Source: a virus (Duplodnaviria > Heunggongvirae > Uroviricota > Caudoviricetes). Taken from it: DNA of 9,411 nt. This document shows, in pieces, positions 7,036 through 7,236 of this stretch (its first letter is position 1; the number at the start of each line of letters is the position of its first letter). The translations under genes were made by a program, and so were the position numbers. The stretch spans positions 1 through 9,411 of the IMG/VR virus record IMGVR_UViG_2606217106_000011; one strand, written 5' to 3'. The notes beneath the pieces are model-generated. The model had not been told where the DNA came from. It did no database searches and saw only the letters and a list, made by a program, of their open reading frames with translations.

Positions 7036-7236
7036 TCATTTCTCGTTATTTTTCATGCTGGCCGGGCGCAGATGCGTTGCATCTGTTGCCAGCCTTCTCC
7101 TGCAGGCTTCAATAACCCACGCTGAAAAGTTACCGGACCCTTTATGCTCAAGGGCGATGTTGATCTGTTCAATCATGTGATTGGGGAAACGGATATTGCG
7201 GGTTGTGGTTCTGCGGGTACGGTTTTTCGATGACAT
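7036..7236 (-). CDS. YlcI/YnfO-family small protein (DUF3950-like), 66 aa
   Basis: Minus-strand ORF; product MSSKNRTRRTTTRNIRFPNHMIEQINIALEHKGSGNFSAWVIEACRRRL... closely resembles the small proteins encoded next to the terminase genes of E. coli K-12 cryptic prophages (ylcI in DLP12, ynfO in Qin), as recalled. SD AAGGA 8 nt upstream on the minus strand. Internal Met chosen over the longer ORF-track start. Confidence 0.75.
   Translation of the reverse strand: MSSKNRTRRTTTRNIRFPNHMIEQINIALEHKGSGNFSAWVIEACRRRLATDATHLRPASMKNNEK

Follow-up and report, generated by a model that had tools for sequence, protein, structure and literature searches.

We analysed a 9,411-nucleotide stretch of DNA from a virus of the class Caudoviricetes (IMG/VR record IMGVR_UViG_2606217106_000011, positions 1 to 9,411; hereafter the window), and in it a small minus-strand gene, ylcI, that lies in the late and packaging region and encodes a protein of the YlcI/YnfO family. 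The open reading frame (ORF) is intact, running from an ATG at 7236 to a TGA at 7036–7038 behind a Shine–Dalgarno sequence (Table 1); an alternative GTG start at 7296 would give 86 amino acids, but the homologues and RefSeq begin at the ATG. The product matched Pfam PF13132 (DUF3950; 71.8 bits against a cutoff of 25, E = 4e-20) and NCBIfam NF041551 (YlcI_YnfO_N; 35.3 bits against a cutoff of 30), exceeding both curated cutoffs, as well as phrog_949 (E = 3e-33), a family without assigned function. It also has the architecture of the family, a single domain of about 60–80 amino acids with some 50 conserved N-terminal residues and a variable tail, and in near-identical prophages RefSeq calls the same 66-amino-acid coding sequence 'YlcI/YnfO family protein'. 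The gene is real, a bona fide family member that has been annotated before, and taken alone it is ordinary; its interest is that it leads to an ORF in phage lambda and to a candidate repressor of phage satellites.

The window is 95–97% identical to Stx1a-converting phages and to phage JLK-2012, and the locus was matched in about 1,464 of 5,426 complete Escherichia coli genomes, with a median of two copies each; a scan of viral contigs for the gene returned near-identical copies only. The family is narrow, with 103 clusters (50% identity) at E < 0.001 among 1.84 billion representatives. Nearly all matches with a named organism came from Enterobacterales, across which the family is detectable at 30–40% identity, and one came from Pasteurella. 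One member, in Rouxiella sp. (L182, 5001–5180), is chromosomal and non-phage, lying between genes for cytochrome bd oxidase subunits and a DUF2474 gene. The searchable literature assigns no function to YlcI/YnfO, and PADLOC found no known defence system among YlcI or its neighbours.

Every neighbour of ylcI is on the plus strand, and ylcI is the sole leftward gene between the lysis cassette and the HNH–cos–terS–terL segment. It is the last opposite-strand gene before cos and the terminase genes, a synteny shared with the K-12 cryptic prophages: ylcI of DLP12 (b4589) and ynfO of Qin (b4533) are last leftward genes too, divergent from nohD/nohA by 388 bp and with cosN (GGGCGGCGACCT) about 200 bp from their start codons. 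A sequence-only reading of the window had proposed the family assignment, the antisense orientation amid late genes and the equivalent position in K-12 prophages, and all three were borne out. The conserved position is wider than that reading had noted, taking in lambda itself as well as other lambdoid prophages. Lambda has an intact 64-amino-acid YlcI/YnfO ORF at complement(48109..48303) of J02459/NC_001416 (L177; also contig L102, 193–387), about 200 bp from the right cohesive end. The RefSeq record NC_001416 has no feature annotated across 47944–48502 and the GenBank reference record likewise lacks the ORF, but the ORF is annotated in certain newer lambda-like records. The same layout recurs in three further E. 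coli prophages, with either a Nu1-type terminase gene about 395 bp off or an HNH gene 41 bp off. The lambdoid chromosome thus ends, on its right, with ylcI, which reads away from cos.

The K-12, lambda and window copies share family, recognition segment (see below) and this place as last leftward gene, but their surroundings differ. In the window an HNH gene stands between ylcI and cos, so that the next gene is 41 bp away as against about 390 bp; the terminase is of the HK97/Terminase_2 type rather than the Nu1 type; the tail of the protein is different; and the downstream neighbour is a TonB_C lipoprotein gene instead of YbcW and DUF1398 genes. Separately, contigs of 48.4 kb or about 3.5 kb in dozens of assemblies from unrelated bacteria, assigned to Streptomyces, Pseudomonas, Cohnella, Flavobacterium and others (L099–L133 and L145), match the right end of lambda and look like contamination with lambda or control DNA. 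L102, the sole such contig compared with lambda directly, was 100% identical to it; the rest were judged from sizes and alignments.

The first 50 residues are 88–94% identical to K-12 YlcI, YnfO and the lambda ORF. Over these codons pN/pS was 0.07–0.10 at a pS of 0.48–0.65 in comparisons with lambda, DLP12, Qin and three other prophage copies (0.08 at a pS of 0.65 against lambda), which indicates strong purifying selection. The paradigm phage lambda carries an intact and strongly constrained YlcI gene that was left out of its reference record. Other E. coli prophages lose homology to the window at 7026, 7082, 7094 or 7102, and the tails are unlike one another in lambda, Qin and the prophage copies L178–L180. 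These rates bear on a quite different account, in which the locus would act as an antisense RNA or excludon against late-operon transcripts and the ORF would be incidental. The gene does run head-on to the late operon with its 3' end converging on its neighbour, no terminator was predicted in the 131-bp gap between ylcI and the TonB_C lipoprotein gene, and K-12 ylcI is transcribed, with transcripts overlapping ybcW and the ybcW–ylcI pair catalogued as a convergent excludon that is seen in half or more of the K-12 RNA-seq samples analysed (PMC12288877). However, a pN/pS of 0.08 at near-saturated synonymous divergence means that the protein itself is the conserved product, and the family is recognizable even at 30–40% identity. 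Rfam gave no match in the window, and the 3' region of ylcI is not unusually structured (folding z-score 0.29). We regard an RNA-only role as very improbable.

Distant relatives of YlcI (30–45% identical) occur in Proteus, Klebsiella, Dickeya, Serratia, Xenorhabdus, Rahnella, Pectobacterium, Morganella and other genera, in satellites resembling phage-inducible chromosomal islands (PICIs) or P4. The gene order in these elements is int, cargo in some (for example KwaAB), alpA, ylcI, an icd-like gene, small ORFs and primase, followed in some by terS and a capsid gene. At species-representative loci from at least 25 Enterobacterales species, YlcI is encoded by the sole opposite-strand gene, and the first satellite gene facing it is Icd-like (NF033153). 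Within the gap of about 190 bp between the two, a GGTG-N6-CACC palindrome whose sequence is particular to each locus occurs three times, near −109, −86 and −39 relative to the start of YlcI, with spacings of roughly 23 and 47 bp. These arrays stood out from chance at 20 of 23 loci, where at most one of 100 shuffles was as good. They overlap the divergent icd-like/primase promoter; in L007 and L010 the leftward sigma-70-like promoter lies beneath the palindromes, and in L007 the YlcI gene is followed by a terminator.

The sequence of the operators follows that of the protein. Where the residue before IRFP, which in an Arc-like strand would point toward the DNA, is G, the half-site ends in ...AAACA(C); where it is N, H, K, A or D the centres differ and are mostly GC-rich, for example TGTGCGCACA or GTACCCCCAC. 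The strongest case is a natural replacement. Between the Klebsiella locus L007 (3760–4210) and the Enterobacter locus L151 (5760–6210; alignment A4), a cassette of about 170 bp comprising all three operators and YlcI codons 1–18 has been replaced. On one side of the cassette, the icd-like gene with its leader is 100% identical between the loci, and on the other side so is the YlcI gene from about codon 20 to its stop. The Icd-like protein was discarded as the reader of the operators, being identical in the two loci although the operators differ. The joint replacement of operators and codons 1–18 argues that the N-terminal segment of satellite YlcI reads the operators and that the swapped cassette would be a specificity module.

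This arrangement resembles that of known satellite repressors. A 2018 paper on PICIs called the global repressor of Gram-negative elements 'unclear' (PMC6092414). A divergent gene with operators over the main promoter is what we would look for in a master repressor, and this is what the satellite homologues present; satellite YlcI bears all the genomic hallmarks of the missing Gram-negative PICI master repressor and is a candidate that can be tested directly. Like SaPI Stl/Rpr, which act as master repressors in Gram-positive PICIs, it is a lone gene divergent from a replication and packaging operon with operators over the promoter. Unlike Stl, a large and unrelated helix–turn–helix (HTH) protein, it points toward alpA and int rather than being co-oriented with int, and the window gene differs from Stl/Rpr in lying in a phage rather than a satellite. 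The satellite operon also recalls the immI region of P1 (C1-controlled Op51, c4 RNA, icd, ant) in beginning with an Icd-like gene, and AntA-type genes occur near some loci. In contrast to P1, no C4 or isrK RNA was detected at the satellite loci and the candidate repressor is YlcI instead of C1; this comparison does not extend to the window. At L010 we observed a sub-threshold match to SymR RNA on the plus strand (3782–3853; 34.9 bits against 61, E = 7e-5), antisense to the leader of the icd-like gene.

Within the protein, the segment before the helices is a candidate for DNA contact. Alignments of the family (A1 and A3) show I15, R16, F17, P18, F37, S38, W40 and C45 to be invariant, within a core motif K-x-IRFP-h-x-LIE-x-I ... 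NFSAWV(I/L)(D/E)AC-x-x-KL. RTTTRNIRFP is invariant in all lambdoid copies compared (lambda, DLP12, Qin, L178, L179 and L180), and the one change in the first 50 amino acids of L180 falls outside this recognition segment. Codons 10–18 are the probable DNA-reading segment, judging from the alignment register and the satellite co-variation. An AlphaFold2 monomer model (69-sequence alignment) has an extended N-terminus followed by two helices, with a pLDDT of 79–88 over codons 19–50 and below 50 for residues 60–66. The core motif is similar to a stretch of P22 Arc, the N-L-R-W-P strand and first helix, and the hhalign alignment falls in that register. YlcI is like Arc and Mnt, the immI repressors of P22, in its small size, its two helices preceded by an N-x-R-[FW]-P strand motif and, in the satellites, its divergent promoters with repeated operators between them. 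It is unlike them in the form of its operators (14-bp GGTG...CACC sites in a 23/47-bp array), in the window copy having none adjacent, and in giving no significant profile or fold match to them. The top Foldseek matches in the PDB were all ribbon–helix–helix proteins (NikR, ParD2 and a VapB-type antitoxin), and weak profile matches to RHH_1 (one of 69 family members, E = 0.24) and to HicB-like families point the same way. A ribbon–helix–helix fold, the check proposed in the sequence-only reading, is thus suggested by Foldseek and AlphaFold2 and is plausible, not demonstrated: none of the Foldseek matches was significant, three fold searches gave nothing significant and searches against PDB-chain sequences gave no hits.

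YlcI might instead be a type II antitoxin of the HicB/ParD/CopG kind. The weak HicB-like matches (phrog_497 at E = 0.006; HicB_lk_antitox in 8 of 69 family members at E ≥ 0.016) would fit this. Possible partners are also in view: in the window the start of a 33-amino-acid minus-strand ORF (6938–7039) overlaps the ylcI stop as ATGA, and in Qin ynfO is followed on the same strand by ydfO (DUF1398). However, the 33-amino-acid ORF, rejected as a toxin partner, lies beyond the homology breakpoints, is missing from most relatives and is probably a chance ORF. DUF1398 is absent here and in the satellites, and where it does occur in DLP12 and lambda, a gene on the opposite strand stands between it and ylcI. 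With no conserved toxin gene adjacent and no partner kept across contexts, an antitoxin is a very unlikely identity for YlcI.

Together these results lead us to lean, if only slightly, toward a model in which YlcI is a small dimeric, ribbon–helix–helix-like DNA-binding protein that acts as a repressor in satellites and in trans in its lambdoid form. DNA would be read by the TRNIRFP strand together with the basic arm at the N-terminus, and the two helices would form the dimer core. In satellites, YlcI would repress both the divergent icd-like/primase operon and its own gene through the three palindromic operators. Three results weigh against this model. The hhalign probability was 7% for Arc and 1% for Mnt. 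No significant sequence or profile similarity to the ribbon–helix–helix superfamily was found. And no operator-like array is present within 160 bp upstream of the lambdoid gene, where shuffles were equal or better in 40 of 100 cases for the window, 48 for lambda and 100 for L180. The window gene accordingly lacks the layout of a master repressor, facing HNH and cos with no operators. To reconcile an invariant recognition segment with the lack of an operator array alongside the gene in the window, lambda, DLP12 and Qin, we suggest that lambdoid YlcI acts in trans, at a target other than the GTTAAC repeats described next. A conserved regulator remains a reasonable reading of the window gene: the DNA binding proposed for it gained indirect backing from the satellite arrays, although the nearby sites put forward for it did not.

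Those sites were two sets of repeats. The first, five GTTAAC-centred repeats at 7734–7863, is highly non-random and lies 30–160 bp beyond the probable cos cut. This cut is placed near 7704, where the record of phage Lys8385Vzw ends, and a motif near-identical to GGACACCGCGCCCCCTCTCAC occurs upstream of terS in a satellite embedded in such a prophage. The array scan recovers R3-R2-R1 of lambda cosB at the equivalent place, where the satellite has another repeat before its own terS (AAGTTACAC, twice). Given the cosB-like place and the differing repeat before the satellite terS, the array is better read as cosB-like TerS sites. As YlcI operators the GTTAAC repeats were rejected, since lambda YlcI has the same recognition residues and yet no such array nearby. 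The second set, an inverted repeat at 6268–6380, folds like shuffled sequence (z = −0.74) with no Rfam hit, and we set it aside both as a target and as a structured RNA. Nor did other motifs qualify. No repeated upstream motif is common to the window and lambda. An 11-mer that the two share in opposite orientation (ACACTGAATAC) is HNH coding sequence with a synonymous-site change in L180, and was dismissed as chance. The sole GTG-N6-CAC site of the window (7366–7377) abuts a promoter-like site (7338..7366), but with 2.75 such sites expected per window its presence is within chance, and L180 has not kept it, so that it was not retained as an operator; lambda has none near its YlcI gene.

The proximity to cos suggests another role, in which YlcI would be a packaging accessory factor acting at cos or on the small terminase, for instance by modulating how cos is recognized, termination or the expression of terminase. 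No other gene ever stands between ylcI and the cos/terminase segment, whether this is of the lambda Nu1 type or the HK97 HNH/Terminase_2 type, and in rare naturally occurring proteins a YlcI domain is fused with the HTH from the N-terminus of a Terminase_2 small terminase. One of these (P0217, 120 amino acids) was found in 43 collection blocks from E. coli chromosomes and its HTH is 66% identical to residues 2–54 of the window TerS; another (P0192) has 129 amino acids. Yet the fusions are rare, and the place they take in their satellites is the regulatory one rather than a packaging module. These satellites are inserted alongside the terS/terL genes of window-like prophages, a 'helper-embedded' configuration that has been described (PMC10111431). 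GTT(T)AAC-type repeats precede the fusions. Most satellite homologues, moreover, are far from terS or cos and face the icd-like/primase operon, TerS alone accounts for the GTTAAC array, and lambda-type and HNH-type copies have the same recognition residues without a common cos-proximal motif. A packaging role thus seems to us unlikely, while the fusions hint at a link between regulation and interference with packaging. One fusion locus (L014) has in addition a second, stand-alone YlcI gene (4590–4772) with two TGGTACGTACCA sites of its own.

If lambdoid YlcI does act in trans, other mobile elements are conceivable targets, the phage copy being an orphan paralogue that silences or senses PICI-type satellites or other prophages. 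The family is common to lambdoid helpers and int–alpA–primase satellites, satellites with two YlcI-domain genes are embedded in terL of window-like prophages (PMC10111431), and the phage copy is strongly constrained although it has no operator array in cis. The position of the gene would fit as well. By the established packaging polarity of lambda, the DNA end bearing ylcI is the first to enter the cell, and the lambdoid copy could possibly be expressed from it. We nevertheless consider such helper–satellite cross-talk quite unlikely: none of the satellite operators found matches a T/N-type recognition segment, the RTTTRN segment is absent from the satellite copies read, and K-12 cryptic prophages retain the gene without known satellites. 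A broader proposal, in which YlcI is the missing repressor of Gram-negative PICI/P4-like satellites with about 18 swappable N-terminal residues and the lambdoid copy is an orphan trans-acting paralogue serving in helper–satellite or prophage–prophage conflict, is in our view an unlikely one when taken as a whole.

Returning to the favoured model of a trans-acting lambdoid regulator, ylcI would probably have a transcript of its own, starting at a promoter by the HNH start and running leftward against the Q-dependent late operon, and YlcI could then be produced in the prophage. Such a promoter, at the 5' end of the HNH gene, is plausible. The candidate picked out by eye straddles the HNH start codon at 7278, and its −10 element TAAAAT is kept in L180, a diverged HNH-type copy about 85% identical; the scan tool did not call it because the −35 element matches at only three of six positions. 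The scan reported four promoter-like sites in the region against 1.7 expected, and its best match, inside the HNH coding region, is probably there by chance. Expression of the window gene independent of the late operon is likely in the prophage state, in view of the literature on the K-12 ybcW–ylcI excludon cited above and of the appearance of a DUF3950 gene in a differential-expression table from O157:H7 RNA-seq (PMC7709258).

The sequence-only reading had also considered a moron. An independently expressed cassette of that kind would have its own promoter and terminator; here weak promoter-like sites were seen and no terminator was predicted. Like the lambda morons bor and lom, ylcI is a small, accessory-looking cassette in or beside the late region, on the opposite strand as bor is, and by analogy with these genes it looks dispensable for core late functions. 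It differs from them in encoding a basic cytoplasmic protein rather than an envelope lipoprotein, in the absence of a predicted terminator and in a far more conserved position and sequence.

Table 1. Coordinates of ylcI, its surroundings in the window and related features at satellite loci.
Feature	Position	Strand	Basis or remark
YlcI/YnfO-family (DUF3950) coding sequence	7036..7236	−	66 amino acids plus stop, MSSKNRTRRTTTRNIRFPNHMIEQINIALEHKGSGNFSAWVIEACRRRLATDATHLRPASMKNNEK; ORF list, Pfam, NCBIfam and PHROG matches
Shine–Dalgarno AAGGAA	7243..7248	−	6 nt before ATG, read from sequence
Predicted N-terminal arm and beta-strand, codons 10–18 (TTTRNIRFP)	7183..7209	−	hhalign register, satellite co-variation
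DUF3950 conserved core, codons 19–50, with GSGNFSAWV turn	7087..7182	−	helices predicted at residues 19–32 and 37–55
Variable mosaic C-terminal tail, codons 51–66	7039..7086	−	homology breaks, tail comparison, pLDDT
Candidate promoter, found by eye	7271..7300	−	−35 TGGAGT 7300–7295, 18-nt spacer, −10 TAAAAT 7276–7271
Alternative weak promoter-like site CTGACA-17-CAGAAT	7338..7366	−	in HNH coding region; best match of scan tool, 9/12
Putative cos cleavage region, GGACACCGCGCCCCCTCTCAC	7690..7710		phage Lys8385Vzw record ends at 7704
Five GTTAAC-centred repeats	7734..7863		5 of 9 GTTAAC sites in the window
Class II holin gene	2885–3100	+	window context
DUF1327 ORF, 330 amino acids	3104–4096	+	window context; between holin and lysozyme genes
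Lysozyme gene	4546–5079	+	window context
Rz gene	5518–5985	+	window context
TonB_C-domain lipoprotein gene	6563–6904	+	convergent with ylcI, 131-bp gap
HNH endonuclease gene	7278–7643	+	Pfam HNH, phrog_589; divergent from ylcI, 41-bp gap
Small terminase gene terS (Terminase_2)	7934–8497	+	Pfam, PHROG
Start of large terminase gene, terL'	8494–	+	truncated
Satellite operator arrays	L007 3915–3987; L010 3878–3936; L013 4592–4646		20–110 bp upstream of YlcI
Further operator arrays	L144, L150, L165 and about 15 more loci		upstream of YlcI
YlcI–TerS fusion genes	L014, L015 and L016 5001–5363; L013 4714–5103

The remainder of the window places ylcI in a defective prophage (Table 1). The HNH gene is a packaging accessory of the HK97 type. 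The terL' ORF ends after 158 amino acids, its homology to intact relatives stops at 8954, and from about 8955 onward the window matches the interior of the tail-tip gene gpJ at 99% identity; a terL' fragment joined inside gpJ implies that all head and tail genes were deleted. The TonB_C lipoprotein gene has a promoter-like site of its own at 6518–6545 (ATGACC-16-TAGAAT with TG) and is probably a moron, and the PHROGs label 'Rz-like spanin' given to it looks like a misnomer. A long minus-strand ORF (4103–4669) follows the DUF1327 ORF and overlaps the lysozyme start, with no PADLOC hit for either. At the left end, a gene for a NanS-p-like esterase (DUF1737, SASA and DUF6645; 224–2184) is split into overlapping ORFs at 224–1450 and 1228–2184. 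A close relative has the esterase as one 1944-nt coding sequence, which points to a frameshift or a sequencing error in the window.

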